From NCBI GenBank assembly GCA_902793005.1, contig CADBBQ010000004.1, forward strand, positions 9,396 through 73,395: a stretch of 64,000 bases of DNA, in the 5' to 3' direction. Both the position numbers and the translations under genes were made by a program. The notes beneath the pieces were generated by a model, which made no database searches, was not told where the DNA came from, and worked only from the letters and a program-made list of their open reading frames with translations. Shown in pieces: positions 397-58,081 of this stretch. This DNA comes from an uncultured Pseudomonadota bacterium (GTDB taxonomy: Bacteria; Pseudomonadota; Alphaproteobacteria; Rs-D84). Every line of letters begins with the position of its first letter. The stretch's first letter is position 1.

Positions 397-429
397 TTTT
401 AGTCCTTTTTATTTTAACAAATTAAAATA

Positions 430-735
430 CCGGGTTTCTGGTGCCAGGTACCCGGCGGACCCCGCAATAACTAAACGGATATAATCAACAATCGCCAATC
501 ATATCCAACGCTTTAATTAAGCAGCCATTGCAAGGCGAACATTGTCGTTCGCAGCGATTCTATCGCCATTCAGTTTTTAGTTAGTGTTTAACGACAACCA
601 CGTCGGATTCAAGTTAAATGCCTTTACTGCGCCTGTCGAAACTATGTCAGCCCCATAAAAGAAATTTAGAATAATTGGTGGAGCTGTGGGGTACCGCCCC
701 CCAGTCCAAAACGACTATTCCGCATAACGTTCAGA
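430..735 (-). ncRNA. ssrA: tmRNA, circularly permuted two-piece form (acceptor piece about 676-735, coding piece about 430-654)
   Basis: On the reverse strand, GGACTGGGG-GGCGGTA-CCCCA-CAGCTCCACCA ends at 676 (T-arm plus 3' acceptor strand plus CCA). A 21-nt gap follows, then GGGGCTGACATAGTTTCGAC starts at 654. GGGGCTG pairs with CAGCTCC and gives the G3:U70 alanine identity pair. The tag frame GCG AAC GAC AAT GTT CGC CTT GCA ATG GCT GCT TAA (552..517) encodes ANDNVRLAMAA. Outer ends are approximate. Confidence 0.85.
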
Positions 736-805
736 ATCATCACCACAAAGCGGCGATTGCATTATAAATCTTTGTGCTGGAAATTGCAAGTTTTTAAGTT
801 TATAA

Positions 806-5699: not shown

Positions 5700-6120
5700 A
5701 GAGTTCAGTTTTCAAAGTTCAGAGTTCAGTTAATGAATAATTAGACAAAAGCCAAAGGCTTTTGTCATCCTGAGCGTAGTGAGATTACGTTGTGGCACCC
5801 CCACATAAGTAATCGAACGCAGTCGAAAGCGAGCGTTTCGCGAGCGTGGATCCAGGCATATTTGATGCCCTGGCGCATACGCGCCAACAAATTTGTCTTT
5901 GCCAAACCCAGATCCGCGTCATCCGCTATCGCGTCTGACTTTCGACTGGCGGGCCCCGCAAAATGTTGCGCATTTTGTGGGTACCCTGGCTCAGGATGAC
6001 AAAACGCTTTCGCATTTTGTCGGTTTGGCAAAGATTCCGCCCCAAGCGATAGCGTGGGGAGGGGAACCGCGAAGCGGTGGCGGGGGTGGTGGGGCAGTGC
6101 AAACGGGCGGTTTTTTTTAA
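5700..6120. repeat. Intergenic cluster of MITE-like palindromic repeats (families A1/A2) plus a GTTCAAA-type heptamer run
   Basis: 5744-5875 (GACAAAAGCC..GGCTTTTGTCATCCTGAGCGTAGTGAGATTACG...CATATTTGATGCCC) recurs reverse-complemented at about 52797-52930 and 55337-55466. 5896-6033 is bounded by CTTTGCCAAACCC / GGTTTGGCAAAG inverted termini. Confidence 0.85.
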
Positions 6121-6417: not shown

Positions 6418-8673
6418 ATGAAAAAGTCTATATTCGAATCGTTAAAATTTTTCTGTGCCGCATTTTTGTGCGTGATTTTGTCTGCATTTGCAACACCAGC
6501 ACATGCGGATAATTCCTGTCGGAATCTCTTTGACCCGTCAACCGCCGAATTGGGTGATATTAGCAGTGAGACTGGGGTTATATCATCCAGTGTTCAATAC
6601 AGAATTGTGAGTGGCTTTATTCCTGTGACTCCTGGGGAAACATACACCGCCAGTGGTAAAATATATAATACGGGTGCCGGTTTGCATGATGTTATGATTA
6701 TCAGGGCATATTACGATTCAGGACAACGGTTTATTGCCGATTCCCGTACTATGTCTGATGCAACGTTTACAATTCCCAGTGGCGTGAGTTATGTTCGTGT
6801 GGAATATTGGACTGGCGAGAATGGGACCGCTGTAATTGCGCAAAGTCAGTTACAATTCGAACAAGGTTCCACCGCAACGGCGTACACGCCATACAACCCG
6901 CTGTGTGCGACGTGTGACGGTACGATTGTGAATTACACATCTGCAACGGGAACGGTGTCGCAATCCGGCACGCCAACACCAGACAATCCAATTGAACCGA
7001 CTTTTTACAAACAAGGAAATATGATTTTGCGCAAGGTTGGCGATTACGCAGATAGCTACGACGCAACCACAGGTAAGATTACTCGTCGCGTCGGTGTGAA
7101 AGTGTTGGATGGCACGGAATCGTGGTCTTATTATTCTGTACAACAAGGCAATATGTTTAGAATATCGATTGCAGGTGGTGTATTAAATGATAAAGGAGTA
7201 TTAGGAGTGCTTTGCAACTCTTACGAAGTTGTTGTGTCTGGCTCGAGGGCTAATGACACATTGAGTGGTACGACAAAAAACTATGATTTCATAAACAACA
7301 ATTACACAACATTAGAAGATTGGAAAGCCTACATTGCACAACAATATGCTGCTGGCACTCCGGTGACGGTGTGGTATCCGTTGGAAACGGAAACTACCGA
7401 AGATTGGACAGAAACGTCTTACTGTGAAACGCCAATCAAAATCGCGACAACGAAATATAATGAGTCTGCGTTTGGGCCGTTGAATACGGCGTTGGCAAAT
7501 GCGATTAGTGTTGTGGATTCGGTCGTGTCAAACACGATTACCCAGGCGGCGAGCATTGCGACTTTGCAGGCACAAAAACAAACGCGTCCAGCGAATGACA
7601 CTTGCCCGGCTTATAAACAATGTTTGTTGGTCGAGGACGAGCAAGGGGTTCCGCACTGGTACGAAATCACCGACCCGTTCCGCGATTTCGTCGCACCAAT
7701 TATTGCGAATAACGTCGCCCCCGCCAGCACCACGAACTCCGTCGGTTATACCCAATTGGAATATATCGAAAGTGATGGAAATTCTTTGATAGACACAGGA
7801 ATTGTTTTTAATGAAGGTGCTTTAAAATTTAAAGCAAACATTATGTTTAGATCTAATGGCGGCGTTGAACAAGAACTTATAGGCAATTATATTGCTGCAA
7901 ATCGTGCAAGTTTTGTTGCGGGAATATATTCCACAAATAAAGTTTTTGTGTATGGTAATGGTGGCAATGTTAATACAGAAGCTGTTTTAAATGAGTGGCA
8001 AACTTTTATTGGCGAAGGTGATTCTAGTGGCAATGTTACTATGATTTATAATAATCAAACAAAGATTGCGACGAGAAAATCTTTTTATAATGATACAAAC
8101 ATTGTGTTATTTGCTGGCGGTTCTGGAATGTTCAATCCGGCAAAATCCGCAATAAGATTAAACAAAATAGCTTTGTGGAGAAATGACACCTTGGTTCGTG
8201 ACTTTGTTCCAGTAAAACGCAACAGTGACGGTGCGATTGGGATGTATGACACCGTGACGAAAACTTTCTTTGCGAACGCAGGCACGGGTACATTTACCGC
8301 GGGACCCGTCGTTGCGAATACCGATGTTCCGGCGAACGGGATGTGGACCGCGACATGGGCGGCCGACGCAACGACAGGTGTCACCGCCGGCACTATCACC
8401 GGCGAGGGGTTGTGTAACGGGGTCACGGGAACAGAGAGCACAGCCGCGACCAGTACACAAACATCATCCGCCAATTGGTCAGTCGATGGCGCAAATTGTT
8501 GGTGCAAAACAACCGCGATTGACGACGGTGATGATACAACAATAGTGGATGGCGTGTGGGTGTTCTACTACGCGCGCAGTTCGGCCGCCGATTGTGCGCT
8601 CAACTGTGCGTACGCCTGCGCGGCCCGCGTCCGTGATAACGCGTCGTTTCGGTCAGCATTGTTCGGAGATTAA
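6418..8673 (+). CDS. Large secreted lectin/tail-fibre-like protein carrying a C-terminal DGR variable-repeat-like segment (remote DGR target candidate)
   Basis: 751 aa. Signal peptide ending PAHA. The central YTQLEYIESDGNSLIDTG jelly-roll-like region is an attribution from memory. The C-terminus WVFYYARSSAADCALNCAYACAARVRDNASFRSALFGD aligns codon for codon with the TR at 55749-55880. Confidence 0.85.
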   Translation: MKKSIFESLKFFCAAFLCVILSAFATPAHADNSCRNLFDPSTAELGDISSETGVISSSVQYRIVSGFIPVTPGETYTASGKIYNTGAGLHDVMIIRAYYDSGQRFIADSRTMSDATFTIPSGVSYVRVEYWTGENGTAVIAQSQLQFEQGSTATAYTPYNPLCATCDGTIVNYTSATGTVSQSGTPTPDNPIEPTFYKQGNMILRKVGDYADSYDATTGKITRRVGVKVLDGTESWSYYSVQQGNMFRISIAGGVLNDKGVLGVLCNSYEVVVSGSRANDTLSGTTKNYDFINNNYTTLEDWKAYIAQQYAAGTPVTVWYPLETETTEDWTETSYCETPIKIATTKYNESAFGPLNTALANAISVVDSVVSNTITQAASIATLQAQKQTRPANDTCPAYKQCLLVEDEQGVPHWYEITDPFRDFVAPIIANNVAPASTTNSVGYTQLEYIESDGNSLIDTGIVFNEGALKFKANIMFRSNGGVEQELIGNYIAANRASFVAGIYSTNKVFVYGNGGNVNTEAVLNEWQTFIGEGDSSGNVTMIYNNQTKIATRKSFYNDTNIVLFAGGSGMFNPAKSAIRLNKIALWRNDTLVRDFVPVKRNSDGAIGMYDTVTKTFFANAGTGTFTAGPVVANTDVPANGMWTATWAADATTGVTAGTITGEGLCNGVTGTESTAATSTQTSSANWSVDGANCWCKTTAIDDGDDTTIVDGVWVFYYARSSAADCALNCAYACAARVRDNASFRSALFGD
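8557..8670 (+). repeat. VR3: variable-repeat-like segment matching the TR
   Basis: Over the 78-nt core 8566-8643 there are 16 differences from the TR, all at TR adenines. The flanks diverge at non-A positions (TGGGTG vs TGGGTC; TCGTTTCGGTCAGCA vs GGCTTTCGGGCTGCG). Confidence 0.75.
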
Positions 8674-12093: not shown

Positions 12094-12128
12094 TTCCAAA
12101 GTTCAAAGTTCAAAGTTCAAAGTTCAAT
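12094..12128. repeat. Heptamer tandem repeat (CAAAGTT)n
   Basis: CCAAAGTTCAAAGTTCAAAGTTCAAAGTTCAA. The same unit (either strand) recurs at about 5700-5730, 55646-55680, 56096-56112 and 56266-56295. Confidence 0.85.
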
Positions 12129-12355
12129 TTTTGTGTGCAACTTTGTTGCACTGCATTATTTGTACTTTGCACTTTGCAAATTGCACTTTAACAAATGTGC
12201 CGGGCACATTTGTAAGGACTTGTGGGGGTCATCGGATGATTTACGCGCCCACCCGCGAAAATCGAACCCATTTTATAGTAAGATTTTGAAAAAAGCAAGA
12301 AAAACATTGAAAAATTAGCAAAATATGATTTACTGAAATTGTGAAGGAGCCCAAA

Positions 12356-31904: not shown

Positions 31905-33020
31905 ATGGCGGATATTTCAAATACAGAATATATTACCGTAAATGCCAATGGGATTTTTGTTGGTGGCAAACCTGCAACAACATATCGTGGTGAAGAAATA
32001 AATTTGCCAGACAGCGTGCATAGAGATTTTGCCCACATCCAAACCTTAAATAAAAATGTTGCGGAATTGCATGTGTTGTCATCGGAAACACGTGGCGAAC
32101 GTGCAAAACCGGGTAATCCATCAGGAAAACAGGGTCCAAATACGTGGTGTCGGGTAAAGTTTGAAAACGGTAATTTTGGTGCGTGGGTCTTCTACAACGA
32201 GTACGCTTCGGCCGCCTTTTGTGCGTGCTACTGTGCGGTCGACTGCGCGTACGACGTCCGTAATAGCGCGTCGTTTCGGTCTGTAGTTTTGGGTGAGACA
32301 ATTGATAAAAGTAAAGCAAAACAAAACGTATTAACAAATGCGTTGAAAGATACAAATTTGTCGCAATGTGTGCCAGATATTCCAAATACAGCATATATTA
32401 CCATAAAATACTATTGGTATTATTTTTATGTTAATCATGATGACCGTTGTTGGGTTATTGGCGCTTTTGTTGGTGGGCATCATGTAGAAAAATATCATGG
32501 TCAGACAATATATGAGTATAACGCTGACGTACGAGATTATAACGCTGAAGCACGAGATGCATACACACGCCTGTTTAATAATAGTGAGTATAATTTTAGC
32601 GATATATATCCGCGCATTGCCAGTGGTTCTATTACAGAAGTTCATGTTGGTGCATTTGAAACGCGTGGCGAATATGCAAAGCCAGGCAATCCGGATGGTG
32701 TGTTTGGTCCAAATGCATGGTGTCGTGTGAAATATAAAAATGGAGATTTAGGTCCGTGGGTCTTTGTTAACGACTGTGGTTCGGCCGCCAATTGTGCGAG
32801 AAGGTGTGTGTTTCTCTGCGCGAGCAGTATCAGAGAATCTGCATCGTTTCGGGCCGCGTTGTGTGGGCCAATTGAAAAATCGAATGCGAATCTTGCTATG
32901 ACACAAAACGCATTAACAAATGTGTTAAAAGATACAGATTTGTCTAAATTTGTTGGCACGCATAAAATCGGTGCTTATGAAATTGTTGTCCGTAAATCTG
33001 GGCAGAATACAAGGGGGTAA
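31905..33020 (+). CDS. Two-module DGR target-family protein (tandem fusion, each module ending in a VR-like segment)
   Basis: 371 aa. Module 1 is MADISNTEYITV...WCRVKFENGNFGAWVF...FRSVVLGE. Module 2 is PDIPNTAYITI...WCRVKYKNGDLGPWVF...FRAALCGP. Ends with the shared C-terminal module. Confidence 0.8.
   Translation: MADISNTEYITVNANGIFVGGKPATTYRGEEINLPDSVHRDFAHIQTLNKNVAELHVLSSETRGERAKPGNPSGKQGPNTWCRVKFENGNFGAWVFYNEYASAAFCACYCAVDCAYDVRNSASFRSVVLGETIDKSKAKQNVLTNALKDTNLSQCVPDIPNTAYITIKYYWYYFYVNHDDRCWVIGAFVGGHHVEKYHGQTIYEYNADVRDYNAEARDAYTRLFNNSEYNFSDIYPRIASGSITEVHVGAFETRGEYAKPGNPDGVFGPNAWCRVKYKNGDLGPWVFVNDCGSAANCARRCVFLCASSIRESASFRAALCGPIEKSNANLAMTQNALTNVLKDTDLSKFVGTHKIGAYEIVVRKSGQNTRG
32184..32297 (+). 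repeat. VR4: VR-like segment, near A-only relationship to the TR
   Basis: 15 substitutions at TR adenines and 2 at non-A positions within the core (ACG to GAG, AGT to GCT). Its 3' flank GCGTCGTTTCGGTC is shared with VR3, not with the TR. Confidence 0.7.
32757..32867 (+). repeat. VR5: decayed VR-like segment
   Basis: Aligns to the TR through the invariant islands TGGGTCTT, TCGGCCGCCAATTGTGCG, TGCGCG and TTTCGGG, but has many non-adenine mismatches. Confidence 0.6.
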
Positions 33021-51859: not shown

Positions 51860-52975
51860 AGTCCGTCCCCTTCTTTATGAAAGAAGGGGTGGCATCCGAA
51901 GGATGACGGGGTAATTGTGCCGGGCGATGTAGTGAAACGAAATCGCCATAAAAAGGTTTTAAATCACAATTACCTCCCCCTACGCCGATAAATCGGCTTC
52001 GGGTACTCCTTCTTTCATAAAGAAGGAGACGGCGCATAAATGCGCCGGGGAAAAAGAGGAAAACATAGAGTTCAAAATTCAAGGTTTTGGTCCCATTCCC
52101 GTTCGGGGCTGGAACCTTGGACGTTGAACTTTGGGATAAACAAAGTTAGGTCGTGTGTCCCCCCGGGATGCCCCGAAATCCAACTCCCATTGAAAATAAT
52201 GGCTGTTCCCGGGGAGTGTGACAAAAACACGGTAGTGTTTTTGTCAAAGCAAATAACAAAGTACAAAGTACAAAGTACAAAGTACAAAGTACAAAGTACA
52301 AAGTGCAAAGTACAAATGATGCCGTGTGGCAACGCCACACACATATGGATATTCTCCTTCTTTATGAAAGAAGGAGTACCCGAGTAAGCGTCAGCGCGCG
52401 AGGGGGAGGTAGTTGTGAAAAGGTCTAAACTGCTGGTGTGGTTGTGATTATAGAGAAAAATATTATCACAACTACCCCACCGTCTTCGACGGTCCCCCCC
52501 TTCTTTCATAAAGAAGGGGAATGTCCGAGAGAAGATGGCGGTCCCCCCTTCTTTGGGAAAGAAGGGAATATCCGAGAGGGGCGGAATGTTTGCCAAACCG
52601 ACAAAACGCGTTTGCGTCTTGTCATCCTGAGCGAAGTCGAAAGTGAGTCACCAACGGTGACGAACGTGGATCTGGGTTTGGCAAAGACAAGGAACTGCCC
52701 CGTCACTCAACCGCGTTGCGGTTTCGTGCCACCCCTTCTTTTTACCCTGCGGGTAGAAAAGACGGGGAATGTCCGAGAGGGTGGCGCGGTGGCGCCGGGC
52801 ATCAAATATGCCTGGATCCGCGCTCGCGGAACGCTCGCTTTCGACTGCGTTCGATTACTTATGTGGGGTTGCCACAACGTAATCTCACTACGCTCAGGAT
52901 GACAAAAAATGTTGCAACATTTTTTGTCTGAATAAAAAAAAGAGAGAGAAACAAAATAAAAAAAAAGGATAGGAA
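51860..52975. repeat. Dense array of palindromic repeats and (CAAAGTA)n upstream of the DGR target gene
   Basis: Contains CCTTCTTT(C/A)(A/T)(T/G)AAAGAAGG hairpins (about 51868, 52006, 52353, 52497, 52545), heptamer run 52255-52316, A2 element 52600-52688 and A1 element (reverse orientation) 52797-52930. Confidence 0.85.
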
Positions 52976-52977
52976 AG

Positions 52978-55011
52978 ATGAAAAAGGTAAGTTTATTTAC
53001 GATTTTATTGTTATCTGGGGTGGGGGCATCGCCGGCGATGGCGGCGTTGACGTCCGCGGATGACATCCTGTCTGAATTGATGATTTATGGTGCGGTGTAT
53101 GGTGATACGGTTGCGGGCGGCCTGGGCGTGTCATATCGTTATCACGGTGATGACGTCGCGACCGAATATTTACAACATACCGACGGCACGGTGTATCACA
53201 AATCATACACATCGGGCCTGGGCACCGCCGGGGACAAGGGCGATTGGCAAAATCATTGGGAAACATATTTCCCACGTCGTGCTTTGTCCGACGGTACGCA
53301 ATTATCCGACGGCGTGACCGTGCACGGAATCTCGCAATGCACGCGCATAGGGGGCACTTTCGCCGTCCCAAATTACGATATGACCGACCCATATACCACC
53401 GTGACCGAGGATGGCGAACGCCAGTGTTGGTGCAAATTAACGCATGTACGCGAGGGCACGAGCGCCCCTGCAAACCTGGATGCGTTGGGTTATTCGGTTG
53501 GGGCCTCGTCTTGGGTCTTCCACAACACGTCCGGTTCGGCCGCCAATTGTGCGTACTACTGTGCGAACGGCTGCGCGAGCGCCGTCCGTCCTAACGCGGG
53601 CTTTCGGGCTGCGGTTTTTGGTGGGGGCGCCTTGGGGCATGCGACCCCGGCGGATATGTGTGGGCAAAATTTAGCGAACGGAAAATTATATGATTACCAG
53701 GTCCCGCGTGTGGCAAAACTGGCCGCCGGGACATATACCGCATCCATTGCCGCCGCGGACGGCGGCAAATGGATGTTGCGGTTACGCGGCGTCGCAGACA
53801 ATACCGCCGTCACGGGCGAAGCCCTGACGGCGGCGCTGGCGTCGAGTGGTTTGGCACTCGACGACAGCGAAATTTCGAATCGCGACGGGTGGGTTTTTGG
53901 CAATGCGGCCGACGCCAATGCTTTGACTTTTACAATTAGGTCCGGCGAATACATCGTCGAAATCGCGAAACAGGACGCCACCGGCGCACAGGATTTAATG
54001 CTGGAACACGGGGATGTGGCGAATGCCTATGTCGCGCCAACGCCGTGTATCCGCATCGCCGGGACGAAAATCGCGGCCGCGGCGTTCGAACGCGCCGATG
54101 CGGTGCGCGCGCGGTTGGTTAATGTCGTTGACCACGTCGTCAGCCAAACTATTACCCAGGCCGGCCACATCGCCACATTACAAACGCAAAAACAAACCCG
54201 CCCGGCCGACGACCCGACGGACGCAAATAACGCCGAAAATTGCCCCGAGGGGAAAAAATGCTTGCTGGTGACGGACGAAAACAAAACGCCGCACTGGTAC
54301 GAAATTTTTGACCCGATACACGAGTGGTATGATGCGTGGGTTACCGCCGGTAAACCCGCCGTCAAAGTGGAAATGGACGGCAGTAACTATTCATTTTATA
54401 ACGCGTTCTATCGCGGGGACAAAACGTGGCGCAAAACATATATCGACGGAACGACATCAACATATGACCGTCCGTTTGACCACGCGACGCGCTGCACAAA
54501 CCCCAGTTATAACACCGAAACGCAAAAAGCTCGTCCGTGCTATTCCGAGGTTGGAATGTTTAAAACACTGGGCGATGGCGAATGGGCCGAGGTTTATACG
54601 TCTGGCGACGGCACGAATTCACCGGTTGGTGTGGTGTATGGCATATCCAAGTGCACATCGGTCGCGGGACCAACAAATTACACCGGTGGTGGAACGCTAC
54701 TGTCGCAATTGTCCGCCGCGGACCAGGCAAAGTGGGCGGAATTGCCGGCTTTGCACGGTCAACCAGAACGCGAAGGATACGACAGCGAGAGTTTCAAACA
54801 ATGCTGGTGCAAGGTGGATGGCGTTGGTGTCCCGGGTGCGGATGGAAACCCTGCAAACGGAAGTATCTATCCGGTTGGGGCCTCGTCTTGGGTCTTCGGC
54901 CGCACGGGCGGTTCGGCCGCCATTTGTGCGAGCTACTGTGCGCGCGACTGCGCGTCCAACGTCCGTGTTTACGCGGGCTTTCGGGCTGCGGTTTTTGGTG
55001 GGCTGGAATGA
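52978..55011 (+). CDS. Secreted DGR variable protein with two lectin-like VR-bearing modules
   Basis: 677 aa. Signal peptide ...SPAMA. Module ends are ...CWCKLTHV...VGASSWVFHNTSGSAANCAYYCANGCASAVRPNAGFRAAVFGG (internal) and ...CWCKVDGV...VGASSWVFGRTGGSAAICASYCARDCASNVRVYAGFRAAVFGGLE (C-terminal). Confidence 0.92.
   Translation: MKKVSLFTILLLSGVGASPAMAALTSADDILSELMIYGAVYGDTVAGGLGVSYRYHGDDVATEYLQHTDGTVYHKSYTSGLGTAGDKGDWQNHWETYFPRRALSDGTQLSDGVTVHGISQCTRIGGTFAVPNYDMTDPYTTVTEDGERQCWCKLTHVREGTSAPANLDALGYSVGASSWVFHNTSGSAANCAYYCANGCASAVRPNAGFRAAVFGGGALGHATPADMCGQNLANGKLYDYQVPRVAKLAAGTYTASIAAADGGKWMLRLRGVADNTAVTGEALTAALASSGLALDDSEISNRDGWVFGNAADANALTFTIRSGEYIVEIAKQDATGAQDLMLEHGDVANAYVAPTPCIRIAGTKIAAAAFERADAVRARLVNVVDHVVSQTITQAGHIATLQTQKQTRPADDPTDANNAENCPEGKKCLLVTDENKTPHWYEIFDPIHEWYDAWVTAGKPAVKVEMDGSNYSFYNAFYRGDKTWRKTYIDGTTSTYDRPFDHATRCTNPSYNTETQKARPCYSEVGMFKTLGDGEWAEVYTSGDGTNSPVGVVYGISKCTSVAGPTNYTGGGTLLSQLSAADQAKWAELPALHGQPEREGYDSESFKQCWCKVDGVGVPGADGNPANGSIYPVGASSWVFGRTGGSAAICASYCARDCASNVRVYAGFRAAVFGGLE
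53495..53625 (+). repeat. VR1 (internal variable repeat)
   Basis: 131 nt collinear with the TR. 13 substitutions, all at TR adenines. No other mismatch. Confidence 0.92.
54872..55004 (+). repeat. VR2 (C-terminal variable repeat)
   Basis: 133 nt collinear with the TR. 18 substitutions, all at TR adenines. No other mismatch. Ends 7 nt before the stop codon. Confidence 0.93.
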
Positions 55012-55021
55012 TAAACCTTTT

Positions 55022-55054
55022 CGCATCAAAAACCCTGTGCGGGTTTTTGATGCG
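55022..55054 (+). other. 14-bp-stem hairpin 18 nt downstream of VR2
   Basis: CGCATCAAAAACCC-TGTGC-GGGTTTTTGATGCG, a perfect inverted repeat. Confidence 0.8.
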
Positions 55055-55059
55055 GGTGG

Positions 55060-55745
55060 ACGACCCAACCCTGGTTGCACCAATGGTGCAACCACCCCTT
55101 CCCTGGCCAGGGAAGGGGGAACTGAGGCGTAAATGGGGTCCCACGGAATTGGGAAATTCCGTGGGCGAAAATGGGGGGTGCGGGGGCGACTCCCCCGCCG
55201 CGCGCAGCGCGGATTTGCCAAACCGGACAAAAGCCAATGGCTTTTGTCATCCTGAGCGAAGTCGAAAGTGAGTCACCAACGGTGACGAACGCGGATCTGG
55301 GTTTGGCAAGGGCAAATTTGTTGGCGCGGCGGCGCCGGGCATCAAATATGCCTGGATCCACGCTCGCGAAACGCTCGCTTTCGACTGCGTTCGATTACTT
55401 ATGGGGCGGTGCCTCAACGTAATCTCACTACGCTCAGGATGACAAAAACGCGGATGCGTTTTTGTTAACAAATTACCCCGTCATCCTTCGGATGCCACCC
55501 CTTCTTTGGGAAAGAAGGGGACGGTGCGAGAGCCGGATGCACGATTTTTCAGACTAAAACACGGTAGTGTTTTTGTTAAAGTACAAAGTACAAAGTACAA
55601 AGTACAAATAATGCCGTGTGGCAACGCCACACACATATGGGACATTAATTGAACTTTGAACTTTGAAAACTGAACTCTGAAAAATGGTGTATCACTGGTA
55701 AAACCCGTGGTTCAGGTGTCAGTTGCTGGGTCGGATTCGGCGTGT
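55060..55745. repeat. Palindromic repeat and heptamer array between the target gene and the TR
   Basis: A2 element 55225-55312, A1 element (reverse) 55337-55466, CCTTCTTTGGGAAAGAAGG hairpin about 55496, (CAAAGTA)n 55578-55608, (AACTTTG)n 55646-55680. Confidence 0.85.
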
Positions 55746-55748
55746 TGG

Positions 55749-55880
55749 CGGTTGGGGCCTCGTCTTGGGTCTTCAACAACACGAACAGTTCGGCCGCCAA
55801 TTGTGCGAACAACTGTGCGAACAACTGCGCGAACAACGTCCGTAATAACGCGGGCTTTCGGGCTGCGGTTTTTGGTGGGC
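55749..55880 (+). repeat. DGR template repeat (TR)
   Basis: CGGTTGGGGCCTCGTCTTGGGTCTTC AAC AAC ACG AAC AGT TCGGCCGCC AAT TGTGCG AAC AAC TGTGCG AAC AAC TGCGCG AAC AAC GTCCGT AAT AAC GCGGGCTTTCGGGCTGCGGTTTTTGGTGGGC. The 26 adenines are confined to 14 codons. All invariant blocks are adenine-free. Confidence 0.92.
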
Positions 55881-55884
55881 TCCT

Positions 55885-56700
55885 GGGAATCGGTGTTATG
55901 ACTTTATCCCAGATAAAGTTTGGCCAACCTGTGGGGACAAAGGATGCAACAAAGTACAAAGTACAAAGTACAAATAATGTTGAACTTTGGATGAAATCCT
56001 TTTCAGATGATGCCGACAAAAAACACGGTAGTGTTTTTGTCAAAGTACAAAGTACAAATAACAAAGTACAAAGTACAAAGTACAAAGTACAAATAATGTT
56101 GAACTTTGAACTTTGGATTGGTGGATTCTGTTTCGAATTGTGCCGATTTATCAAGGCGGAGTGATATTACCGCATTGCAAACAAAAACGCGTTCGCGTTT
56201 TTATCAAAGTACAAAGTACAAATAACAAAGTACAAATAGTGTGTCGGCATAGCCGACGGCAACAATTGAACTTTGAACTTTGAACTTTGAAAACTGATAT
56301 GTTTGCTTTGAAATAAATACACAGGGGGGTGTTGGGTCAGTAATTCTGTTCTGTATCGTGGTGACCACCCGACGCCCCAAAGGGCTATGGGTGGCAGGCC
56401 TCCCTTCGCCCCAATAGGGCTATGGGTGGCAGGCCTCCCTTCGCCCCAAATACAAAAACGCGGACGCGTTTTTGTCATTGCGAGCGAACGAGTTCAATTT
56501 GCGTGCAACGCAAAGCCGAACGAGTGAGACGTGGCAATCCAGTCAATAATAAAGTCCAGCCTGCGGCTGGTGCTTTAATAGACCTGGATCCCCACGTGTC
56601 GCAAAACTGCGAATGCACGACATCGCAGGTTTTGCTCCCTCGGGATGACACAACGTTGAAAACGTTGTGTCTGAAATTTGAATTAACAATGGAGAGATAA
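55885..56700. repeat. Heptamer runs and palindromic or tandem repeats between the TR and the accessory ORF
   Basis: (CAAAGTA)n at 55958-55985, 56040-56093 and 56205-56235. (AACTTTG)n at 56096-56112 and 56266-56295. A roughly 35-bp unit CCCCAA(A/T)AGGGCTATGGGTGGCAGGCCTCCCTTCG occurs twice at about 56377-56447. Confidence 0.8.
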
Positions 56701-56704
56701 AAAA

Positions 56705-57031
56705 ATGACTATTGAAGAAATTGCCCAGGTGCGGGCGGTGGATTGTCCGGCGTTTTCTGTGTTCGCCAAGGACAAATTGCCTTTGCCGGGTGTTAAAAAA
56801 CGCTTGGATGAAATTTTAAATAAAGAAATCTTGGTCGTCGATTTCCGAATTACAAAATCAAAAAAACGCGAGGGGTCCGAGTGCCTGCAAATCCAATTCG
56901 TGTGCGATGATGTTATCTGTGTTGCATTTACTGGGTCGTCAGTTTTGGCGACCCAAATTCAATCTGTACGGGAAAAAATTCCTTTTCGAACGTGCGTTAC
57001 AAAAATCGATAAATATTATTCTTTTTCGTGA
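56705..57031 (+). CDS. DGR accessory protein candidate (in the Avd position; not recognisably Avd by eye)
   Basis: 108-aa ORF ending 24 nt before the RT ATG. GGAGAG RBS-like sequence upstream. Confidence 0.65.
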   Translation: MTIEEIAQVRAVDCPAFSVFAKDKLPLPGVKKRLDEILNKEILVVDFRITKSKKREGSECLQIQFVCDDVICVAFTGSSVLATQIQSVREKIPFRTCVTKIDKYYSFS

Positions 57032-57055
57032 TTTTTTCGTTGGTGGTTGCTGAAT

Positions 57056-58081
57056 ATGAAAACCTATAATAATTTATGGGATGAATTTATATCGCCCGAA
57101 AATTTCCAGTTGGCTGCGCGCAAGGCAATTAAAAGCAAAAAATCTAAATCCGCCGTCGCAAAATTTATGGCGAATAAAGATGCGTTGCTGGATAAACTGC
57201 GCCGGGATATTATGTCGGGCGTGTTCCGCACGTCCCCATATGTCGTCAAAACAATTTTCGAACCAAAACAGCGTCAAATTTATGTCTTGCCGTTGTATCC
57301 TGACCATATTTTGCACCACGCGCTGGTTAATGTGCTGGGGCCGATTTGGTTGAAAATGTTCGTCGCCGATTCGTTCGCGTGTATCCCGGGACGCGGCCTG
57401 CATTCGGCATCTACGCGCGCAATGGAATTGGTGCGGCGAAATAAATATGTGCTGCAATGTGATATCAGAAAATTTTACCCCAGTATTCGGCACGATGTGA
57501 TGAAACGAATTCTGCGCCGGAAAATTTCAGACAGGCGGATTCTGCGTTTGCTTGATTGCGTCGTCGATTCTGTCGAGGGGGATAAAAATGTCCCGATTGG
57601 AAATTTAACCAGTCAATGGTTCGGTAATGTGTTCTTGAACGAGTTAGACCATTTCGTCAAAGAAAAACTGCAATGGCGCGAATATATCCGGTATTGCGAT
57701 GATTTTTGCTTGTTCGGAAATGACAAGGCGGCGTTGCGCGCGGCGTTGGCCCAAATCCAAGATTTCGTCCATCAGGAATTGCAATTGGAATTTTCCAAGT
57801 CTGTGATTTATCCCGTTTGGCGCGGATTCGATTTTATCGGGTATCGACATTTCCGCGGATTTATCTTGTTGCGGAAAACAACCGCACGACGCATCAAGAA
57901 AAATGTCATAAATATGGCACGATACCACGATTTCGGCGAACACAGTGTAGGGCAATTGGCCGCATATCACGGTTGGGCCAAGTGGGCAAATACATATCGG
58001 TTTAAACGAAAAATTCAACGCGCGGTGGGTCATTACGGGGGCGATGCCGCAAAATTCTTGCGTAAAAATTTCTGGTTTTAA
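57056..58081 (+). CDS. DGR-type reverse transcriptase
   Basis: RT motifs 1-7: KPKQRQIYVLP, (I)PGRGLHSA, QCDIRKFYPSI, the DGR-diagnostic motif 4 PIGNLTSQWFGNVFLNELDHF, catalytic RYCDDFCLF and FIGYRH. Start taken at the ATG (MKTYNNLW). Confidence 0.93.
   Translation: MKTYNNLWDEFISPENFQLAARKAIKSKKSKSAVAKFMANKDALLDKLRRDIMSGVFRTSPYVVKTIFEPKQRQIYVLPLYPDHILHHALVNVLGPIWLKMFVADSFACIPGRGLHSASTRAMELVRRNKYVLQCDIRKFYPSIRHDVMKRILRRKISDRRILRLLDCVVDSVEGDKNVPIGNLTSQWFGNVFLNELDHFVKEKLQWREYIRYCDDFCLFGNDKAALRAALAQIQDFVHQELQLEFSKSVIYPVWRGFDFIGYRHFRGFILLRKTTARRIKKNVINMARYHDFGEHSVGQLAAYHGWAKWANTYRFKRKIQRAVGHYGGDAAKFLRKNFWF

Follow-up and report, generated by a model that had tools for sequence, protein, structure and literature searches.

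A diversity-generating retroelement on the chromosome of a gut alphaproteobacterium, with a candidate accessory protein and no recognisable Avd

No natural means of diversifying proteins is known to be more powerful than diversity-generating retroelements (DGRs), which are now being engineered for targeted mutagenesis. As far as we are aware, mechanistic work on them rests entirely on one system, that of Bordetella phage BPP-1, in which the accessory protein Avd is essential. The element described here lies in 64,000 nt of contig CADBBQ010000004.1 (assembly GCA_902793005.1, positions 9,396–73,395; 'the window' is this whole stretch), from an uncultured alphaproteobacterium. It is a DGR, and its components are ordered as a target gene with two variable repeats (VR1 and VR2), a template repeat (TR), an accessory gene and a reverse transcriptase (RT) gene. 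In itself such an element is of an ordinary, known kind; the interest comes from the accessory protein family, the covarying RNA scaffold and the insertions in the loops of that scaffold, which resemble miniature inverted-repeat transposable elements (MITEs).

The BPP-1 DGR (mtd-avd-TR-brt) has a homologous RT (bRT); the RT of the locus keeps the motif-4 sequence IGxxxSQ and the catalytic aspartates, and R74 and I181 also have their counterparts in it. Both systems show adenine-only differences between TR and VR in AAY codons, a C-terminal VR followed by a hairpin, and a TR set in a structured RNA, in which sequences upstream and downstream of the TR pair over about 13 bp. Unlike BPP-1, the locus lacks Avd and carries a 108-residue predicted beta-barrel protein, has the order target-TR-accessory-RT and two VRs in one gene, and displays no visible difference between the IMH (initiation of mutagenic homing) and IMH* sequences. 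The spacer RNA of BPP-1 is 140 nt, whereas that of the locus is longer (about 250 nt in relatives) and is covered by no Rfam family. The locus is also on a bacterial chromosome rather than in a phage, and its target is a secreted protein of no recognised fold.

A second point of comparison is the DGR of the archaeal virus ANMV-1 (KP703175), where a protein of the same family as the 108-residue accessory adjoins the RT (AJP62065.1, 98 aa, 41% identical, E = 1e-21) and the cassette likewise has no Pfam Avd. It differs in having the RT before the accessory gene, an archaeal virus as host and a tail-fibre-like protein as target. That target was reported as a predicted Mtd-like protein, and the published figure marks an 'Avd' open reading frame (ORF) (Paul et al. 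2015, PMC4372165); 'Avd' assignments in archaeal DGRs rested on similar isoelectric point (pI) and size, not on homology. Avd proper is a basic, all-helical, barrel-forming protein (homopentamer, pI 9.5) present in about 74% of catalogued DGRs and thus not universal; about a quarter of them lack it, and about 29% of catalogued DGRs are classed as having no accessory gene (PMC5758913). According to the same survey, there must be a mechanism that does without Avd (Wu et al. 2018, PMC5758913). Its Architecture A / Lineage 3 DGRs share with the locus an Avd-less cassette and a TR that adjoins the RT, but at the locus a specific conserved partner protein has been identified. Chromosomal DGRs acting on surface proteins (Legionella LdtA, Treponema TvpA, Bacteroides pilins) also have targets with a signal peptide and hypervariable C-terminal residues, and the density of change reported for the Bacteroides DGRs, about 50% of adenine sites, compares with about 50–70% per VR at the locus. 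Unlike the locus, these systems have Avd or Avd-like proteins, some of them MSL too, and recognised C-type lectin or pilin folds in their targets.

Template repeat, reverse transcriptase and strain comparison

An ungapped scan of the window with the 132-nt TR returned two strong copies, at 53495 (118/132 identical) and 54872 (114/132), which share one frame of a single ORF, the target gene. VR1 differs from the TR by 13 mismatches (A>C 5, A>G 5, A>T 3) and VR2 by 18 (A>G 10, A>T 5, A>C 3). All 31 are at TR adenines, and the only non-adenine difference is TR position 132, at the end of the VR1 homology. The chance of all mismatches falling on the 26 adenine positions is 3.6e-11 for VR1 and 2.0e-16 for VR2. 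In the target frame, the first codon position holds 14 of the TR adenines and the second the other 12, while the third is free of them, and the 14 adenine-bearing codons (10 AAC, 2 AAT, 1 ACG, 1 AGT) are such that no stop codon is reachable. The 3' 26 nt of the TR occur in exactly three copies within the window. A preliminary description of this DNA, made from the sequence alone, had given 13 and 18 differing adenine sites, 26 adenines confined to positions 1 and 2 of 14 codons, and about 10^15 possible peptides per VR; the exact alignment it proposed agrees with the first of these base by base, the codon tabulation bears out the second, and the arithmetic of the third is correct (15^12 x 16 = 2.1e15). 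Non-adenine mismatches, which it named as a sign against a DGR, are absent from the interior of the repeats.

The RT returned the bRT of Bordetella phage as its top solved-structure match, aligned over its full length (8ub7_A, E = 8.8e-47, residues 2–316, about 33% identity), compared with 5.6e-20 for group II intron RTs and 1e-15 for retron-type RTs, and it scored far below every cut-off of the NCBIfam group II, retron and defence-RT (DRT) models. It thus groups with DGR RTs and not with the group II or retron enzymes whose kinship had been named as a possible refutation. Alignment with bRT showed that the counterparts of K29, R74, I76, D138, I181, G182, Q187 and D215/D216 are conserved; according to the cryo-EM study of bRT, these residues touch the template base or the incoming nucleotide, or are catalytic. 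The motifs PIGNLTSQ (motif 4, I/LGxxxSQ) and YCDD are present, as are the PIGNLTSQWFGNVFLNELDHF string and YCDDF box quoted earlier for this ORF. A homologue search gave no outgroup, as the matches listed were all of one clade (at least 55% identity). A second ORF of equal length (836–1861) was considered as another RT and rejected, since it encodes the GTPase Obg.

Versions of the locus from other strains were found in assemblies of other samples by means of the exact accessory-protein sequence, and four versions, all consensus assemblies, were compared. VR1 and VR2 differ at 13–18 TR-adenine positions per strain pair, while the TR is 95.5–100% identical. Non-adenine VR differences number 1–8 per pair and include changes that mirror each strain's own TR. 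For example, the TR of strain L007 carries GCGTCGTTTCGGTCTGCGGTG where the window has GCGGGCTTTCGGGCTGCGGTT, and the identical change is found in both L007 VRs; in the same way, L009 has CCTCTGCGTGGG in place of CCTCGTCTTGGG in its TR and in both of its VRs. When VRs are compared with the TR of their own strain, mismatches are all at adenines except for the VR1 boundary base and two positions at the 5' end of VR2 in L007. Outside the VRs the target gene is 88–89% identical between strains, the accessory gene 99–100% and the RT gene 97–98%. Judged from these sequences, the pattern is the footprint expected of repeated TR-to-VR retrohoming after the strains diverged, and it points to a one-way flow of information from TR to VR and to recent diversification. 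Adenine-site heterogeneity, the lack of which had been put forward as another possible refutation, could be approximated with these assemblies, and the VR differences do concentrate at TR-adenine sites.

The adenine-only mismatches, the bRT-like RT and the strain comparison all bear out the identification of the element as a DGR. Its extent needs revision: the preliminary description called the span 55749–58081 a complete element, but the target gene (52978–55011) and an RNA element upstream of the TR (55545–55696) belong to it as well, and the accessory gene (56705–57031), the absence of Avd, the structured RNA and the MITE-like insertions had been missed. The revised features are listed in Table 1.

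Table 1. Features of the DGR locus (window coordinates)
Feature	Position	Strand	Remarks
Target gene	52978–55011	+	677 aa; signal-peptide-like N-terminus; two paralogous VR-bearing modules, both VRs in frame
VR1	53495–53625	+	131 nt, internal; 13 mismatches to TR, all at TR adenines; varies between strains
VR2	54872–55004	+	133 nt, C-terminal, ends 7 nt before the stop codon; 18 mismatches, all at TR adenines
Hairpin downstream of VR2	55022–55054	+	14-bp stem, 5-nt loop; 18 nt downstream of VR2; z-score -3.2, 0/200 shuffles fold as well
Conserved hairpin upstream of TR	55545–55684	+	arms 55545–55553 TTTTTCAGA and 55676–55684 TCTGAAAAA; covarying in 31-species alignment; MITE-like insertion in loop
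TR-bracketing duplex, 5' strand	55685–55696	+	TGGTGTATCACT; covariation with the spacer strand
TR	55749–55880	+	132 nt, 26 adenines; 95.5–100% identical across strains compared while VRs vary
H-type pseudoknot	55883–55919	+	directly 3' of TR; per-sequence helix search
Structured spacer RNA	55918–56378	+	long-range stem closing several hairpins, then 3' helix; 28-species alignment
TR-bracketing duplex, 3' strand	56160–56171	+	AGTGATATTACC; pairs with 55685–55696
Accessory gene	56705–57031	+	108 aa; predicted OB-like beta-barrel, not Avd; 101 same-length homologues; adjoins DGR-type RT in 69/71 species
RT gene	57056–58081	+	341 aa; Pfam RVT_1; bRT match; phrog_1423 at 1e-101

The accessory protein family and the RNA around the template

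The accessory gene ends 24 nt upstream of the RT gene. Its 101 homologues, nearly all of 108 aa, share 54–88% identity and 22 invariant positions, and in the 69 species-level genomes in which the gene adjoins a DGR-type RT it usually lies 0–30 nt upstream, with the RT on the opposite strand in one. The accessory-RT cassette occurs in differing genome contexts among related species. In about 30 of these the order is VR-TR-accessory-RT, the TR shows adenine-specific mismatches to the VR and, in nearly all, its end is 213–300 nt upstream of the accessory gene. Some Enterousia-group genomes have two accessory-RT cassettes on separate contigs (loci L022/L064, L052/L082 and L060/L063); DGRs of this type can therefore be present more than once per genome.

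The 108-residue protein has no Pfam, NCBIfam or PDB sequence match. An AlphaFold2 (AF2) model based on 46 sequences has a predicted local distance difference test (pLDDT) score of 92 and is mainly beta, with short N-terminal helices followed by strands 41–51, 59–67 and 70–76, a helix (79–87), and strands 94–101 and 104–107. This strand-helix order fits that of an OB-type barrel. Weak matches among solved structures, read from their entries, are largely OB-type (RuvBL domain II, RPA, SSB, Teb1, HIN), and among the predicted viral structures of BFVD the top matches are phage proteins in which an RT domain is joined by this same domain (E = 3.7e-6 and 5e-6), with phage entries named ssDNA-binding protein also returned. 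The predicted pI is 8.6; across the wider family the mean is 7.9 ± 1.4, less basic than Avd, for which 9.5 is reported. When every ORF lying upstream of the target or in the interval from VR2 to the RT was scanned against Pfam, NCBIfam and the PDB, none matched Avd (PF05635) or any other family; the cassette is already taken up by conserved RNA and repeats. Avd is likewise absent from the precomputed Pfam annotation of related loci, and from every cassette examined.

An exhaustive profile search extended the family to 813 cluster representatives (E ≤ 1e-3), of which 319 pass E ≤ 1e-10; their length is mostly 95–105 aa. No Pfam model matched the family, distant members included, and distant members match phrog_19665 (unknown function). 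A scan of viral contigs with one subfamily alignment gave 231 contigs, 80 of which were taken for context: in 76 of the 80 a DGR-like RT is immediately upstream of the accessory gene on the same strand, and 49 have adenine-specific TR/VR pairs, all ordered VR-TR-RT-accessory with a TR-RT gap of 97–197 nt. The order of accessory and RT genes is thus reversed in the Enterousia group relative to the phage contigs. Fusions were also found. P0311 (414 aa) and P0243 (507 aa) consist of a DGR-type RT (RVT_1, IGNY(L/I)SQW, Y(C/A)DDMV) followed by the accessory domain, and the p00 RT of Bacteroides phage (434 aa) is a natural RT-accessory fusion. The synteny with RTs in phages, the RT fusions and the ANMV-1 member mark the protein as a regular DGR component. 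Three relatives are of odd construction (P0292, 150 aa; P0320, 196 aa; P0251, 233 aa): in two, the first 50–125 residues of a DGR RT run straight into the accessory domain, which gives the appearance of a lost RT core, and the other has two tandem accessory domains behind an acidic N-terminus.

Four accessory classes have been published (Avd, HRDC, MSL, CH1), and the protein belongs to none of them; CH1 proteins, for instance, are 160–169 aa with a pI of 4.7. Wu et al. also name poorly supported accessory candidates, PAG1-4 (PMC5758913), one of which could correspond to it. No description of an OB-fold or other new DGR accessory protein was found in the literature searched. Synteny, fusion and the absence of Avd make the family a likely functional substitute for Avd in many DGRs. 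A broader proposal would be that it is a widespread and apparently undescribed accessory class, an OB-like barrel that, in phages, an archaeal virus and gut alphaproteobacteria, stands in for Avd in a large part of the DGRs considered Avd-less, encoded next to or fused with the RT and with its own TR-flanking RNA scaffold; to this we would give about an even chance.

The TR is embedded in a conserved, covarying RNA that includes a 13-bp bracketing duplex. In this duplex, 95.5% of alignment cells are paired, compared with 37–52% when the strands are slid, 11 of 13 pairs show compensatory changes, and none of 500 shuffles reaches the observed values. Cognate duplexes average -23.5 kcal/mol, compared with -15.3 for mismatched species pairs; that of the window, at -13.9 kcal/mol, is weaker than any other compared. 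A similar pairing between distal sequences on the two sides of the TR, averaging 13 bp, has been reported for Avd-type DGRs (Handa et al., bioRxiv 10.1101/2023.10.23.563531). Directly 3' of the TR, stem a of the pseudoknot pairs CTGGGA (55883–88) with TCCCAG (55907–12) and stem b pairs ACTTTAT (55901–07) with ATAAAGT (55913–19). The per-sequence helix search recovered such interleaved helices, with changing sequences, in most of 29 sequences, and at least six short variants are without them.

The spacer between TR and accessory gene, about 240–250 nt in other species, is strongly conserved. It contains a long-range stem (CCUGY/RCAGG), three to four internal hairpins and a 12-bp 3' helix with an inner 3-bp stem. 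The structure has 95.3% of cells paired, compared with 27–47% when slid, and 22 compensatory pairs, compared with 2–10; none of 500 shuffles reaches it. A local spacer hairpin of the first model (P5) was rejected, being better read as one strand of the bracketing duplex. All conserved RNA blocks are present in the window.

Target protein, host and repeats

Each of the two modules of the target protein ends with the pattern W-V-F...S-A-A-x-C-A-x-x-C-A-x-x-C-A-x-x-V-R-x-x-A-G-F-R-A-A-V-F-G. The protein has no Pfam, NCBIfam or PHROG match and only three homologues were retrieved. The C-terminal module, which has no Pfam match, was modelled from 8 sequences with a pLDDT of 60.5, a confidence at which the Foldseek output is meaningless. 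Targets with several VRs are rare but known, one three-VR gene having been reported among 372 DGRs. The hairpin downstream of VR2 could be a target-recognition hairpin, the terminator of the target gene, or both. The secreted two-module target probably mediates contact with hosts, other microbes or phages.

Modules similar to the TR are found in other genes of the window, at 8540–8671 (the end of ORF 6418–8673) and at 32167–32298 and 32740–32871 (both in ORF 31905–33020), and are identical to it at 73–92 of 132 positions. Those at 8540–8671 and 32167–32298 differ from the TR at about 60% of adenine sites and about 24% of other sites, the 3' end included. All three were rejected as current targets because of their many non-adenine differences and unmatched 3' ends; their appearance is that of past targets, or of ones served by a different template. 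The 371-aa gene at 31905–33020, downstream of EF-Ts, is missing in most other strains, which have a 58-aa ORF instead (loci L088–L097); in L093, the one strain that has the gene, the detected module is identical. The target (approximately 53995–54330) and a 751-aa paralogue (approximately 7500–7800) share a central segment, VVDxVVSxTITQAxxIATLQxQKQTRP...C...CLLVxDE...PHWYEIxDP, a hint that secreted proteins of this genome form a modular family.

The window is part of a cellular chromosome, with genes for Obg, rubrerythrin, GroEL, ribosomal protein S2, EF-Ts, trigger factor and FtsH, and five tRNAs. A two-piece (permuted) transfer-messenger RNA of the alphaproteobacterial type at 426–793 (minus strand, 165 bits) confirms the taxonomic placement. 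The genomes nearest to it were assembled from metagenomes of horse, ruminant and human gut and bear the name Candidatus Enterousia or just Alphaproteobacteria. The DGR is flanked by the trigger factor gene on one side and by a LOG-family gene, tilS and ftsH on the other; in other species the same cassette is found in quite different neighbourhoods. Predicted promoters and terminators were no more numerous than in shuffled sequence.

The TR-to-accessory distance in the window is 824 nt. As read from the sequence, the spacer contains three insertions (approximately 55947–55990, 56017–56125 and 56176–56305), which occupy the loops of hairpins two and three and a variable stretch, and a fourth (about 55553–55680) lies in the loop of the hairpin upstream of the TR. 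They are copies of a composite MITE-like repeat, consisting of a short hairpin (AAAACACGGTAGTGTTTTT or AAAAACGCGnnnGCGTTTTT), (CAAAGTA)n, a spacer and (TTGAACT)n, whose two heptad arrays complement each other except at about one position in every heptad. Further copies lie at 12097–12190 (minus strand) and 52117–52330; the repeat clusters around the DGR but is not confined to it. Since the same families occur elsewhere in the window, the inserted repeats are read as genome-wide MITE-like elements and not as DGR parts. Other strains of the species have spacers of 577–754 nt and still show TR-to-VR transfer, so the insertions seem to be tolerated. Between the last spacer helix and the accessory gene there are about 330 nt of other repeats, and directly after that helix a 35-nt unit (CCCCAAAGGGCTATGGGTGGCAGGCCTCCCTTCGC) is tandemly duplicated at 56375–56444. 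A second repeat family of about 210–300 nt, with inverted ends TTTTGTCATCCTGAGCGAAG ... CGCTCAGGATGACAAAA, is found between VR2 and the TR (55236–55450), upstream of the target gene (52610–52910) and, inverted, upstream of the paralogous gene 6418–8673 (5755–6010).

Proposed mechanism, alternatives and implications

In the mechanism proposed here, an RNA containing the TR and its structured flanks would be copied into cDNA by the DGR RT with misincorporation opposite template adenines, and the mutagenised cDNA would replace VR1 or VR2 of the one secreted protein, giving about 2e15 possible peptides per VR. The 108-aa protein would act in place of Avd: it would attach to the RT and to the flanking RNA, perhaps also to single-stranded cDNA, and so build a priming-competent ribonucleoprotein. 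The TR-bracketing duplex may have the role of the distal-sequence duplex known from the Bordetella phage DGR, and the MITE-like insertions may be tolerated because they are located in loops. Taken together with this mechanism, the reading of the locus as an intact, recently active chromosomal DGR of a gut or rumen alphaproteobacterium of the Candidatus Enterousia group is given a probability of roughly 0.8.

Several points weigh against it. Activity is inferred from consensus assemblies of different samples, not from reads or experiment, and the role of the accessory protein from synteny, fusion and a predicted fold. No solved structure matched the accessory model at E ≤ 1e-3 (template modelling (TM) scores were 0.38–0.45, which is weak), and Avd is poorly conserved, so that a negative Pfam result is not absolute proof of its absence. 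By pairwise identity, the RTs associated with the accessory protein are not clearly set apart from bRT. A duplex between the TR 3' end and the spacer, of the template:primer kind seen in BPP-1, showed no consistent covariation by eye, and no priming nucleotide was identified. No IMH* substitutions are visible, and as the TR and VR 3' ends are identical up to the homology boundary, no IMH/IMH* difference accounts for directionality. VR1 has no significant counterpart of the hairpin downstream of VR2. Lastly, the three spacer insertions and a flank of 824 nt, where about 250 nt is found elsewhere, could impair function in this strain.

This last point leads to the possibility that the DGR of this strain is a recent fossil, in which MITE-like insertions have inactivated the flanking RNA and the VR differences predate them. 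Three insertions do break the conserved spacer and a fourth the upstream hairpin, the TR-to-accessory distance far exceeds the 213–300 nt of most species, and the bracketing duplex is the least stable of those compared. However, the insertions are in hairpin loops or a variable stretch, leaving the conserved blocks and most helices readable, the RT and accessory ORFs are intact, and the other strains, whose spacers are also long, have nevertheless copied strain-specific TR changes to both VRs; loss of function is accordingly considered unlikely. We are equally doubtful that, in a genuine DGR, the 108-aa protein is dispensable for retrohoming, whether as an RT-associated domain, a regulator or cargo, with an accessory-free mechanism at work. 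Such a view draws on the 29% of catalogued DGRs classed as accessory-less (PMC5758913), on the weak solved-structure matches and on a mean pI lower than that of Avd. It is countered by the near-obligate pairing with DGR RTs in bacteria, phages and an archaeal virus despite the reversed gene order between groups, by independent fusions to the RT C-terminus, by strong conservation (the 22 invariant columns), and by near-complete identity of the accessory between strains whose target genes are only about 88% identical.

A more radical alternative is that the repeats are ordinary paralogous segments undergoing gene conversion, with positive selection at contact residues, and that the RT is an unrelated retron or group II enzyme. 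In its favour are the further paralogous modules of the window, which do have non-adenine differences. Yet the mismatches between the TR and both VRs fall without exception on the adenines of one copy (P = 1e-11 to 1e-16), with other bases unchanged inside the repeats; that invariant copy is non-coding and adjoins an RT whose top match is bRT; transfer across strains always runs from TR to VR; and the adenine pattern recurs in about 30 species and 49 phage contigs. This alternative is highly improbable, and is already refuted by the data.

If the broader proposal of a widespread accessory class is correct, many cassettes catalogued as accessory-less do carry an accessory gene, and the Avd-independent mechanism becomes directly testable. 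The locus offers a concrete candidate for the missing partner of Avd-less DGRs, with hundreds of family members, strict synteny with the RT and natural fusions, together with an RNA scaffold, backed by covariation, in which the bracketing duplex of Avd-type systems is retained. The set of parts is small and defined (RNA, RT and the 108-aa protein), making reconstitution and comparison with bRT-Avd possible. For the host, it shows an active DGR in Candidatus Enterousia, an uncultured lineage of the gut and rumen.

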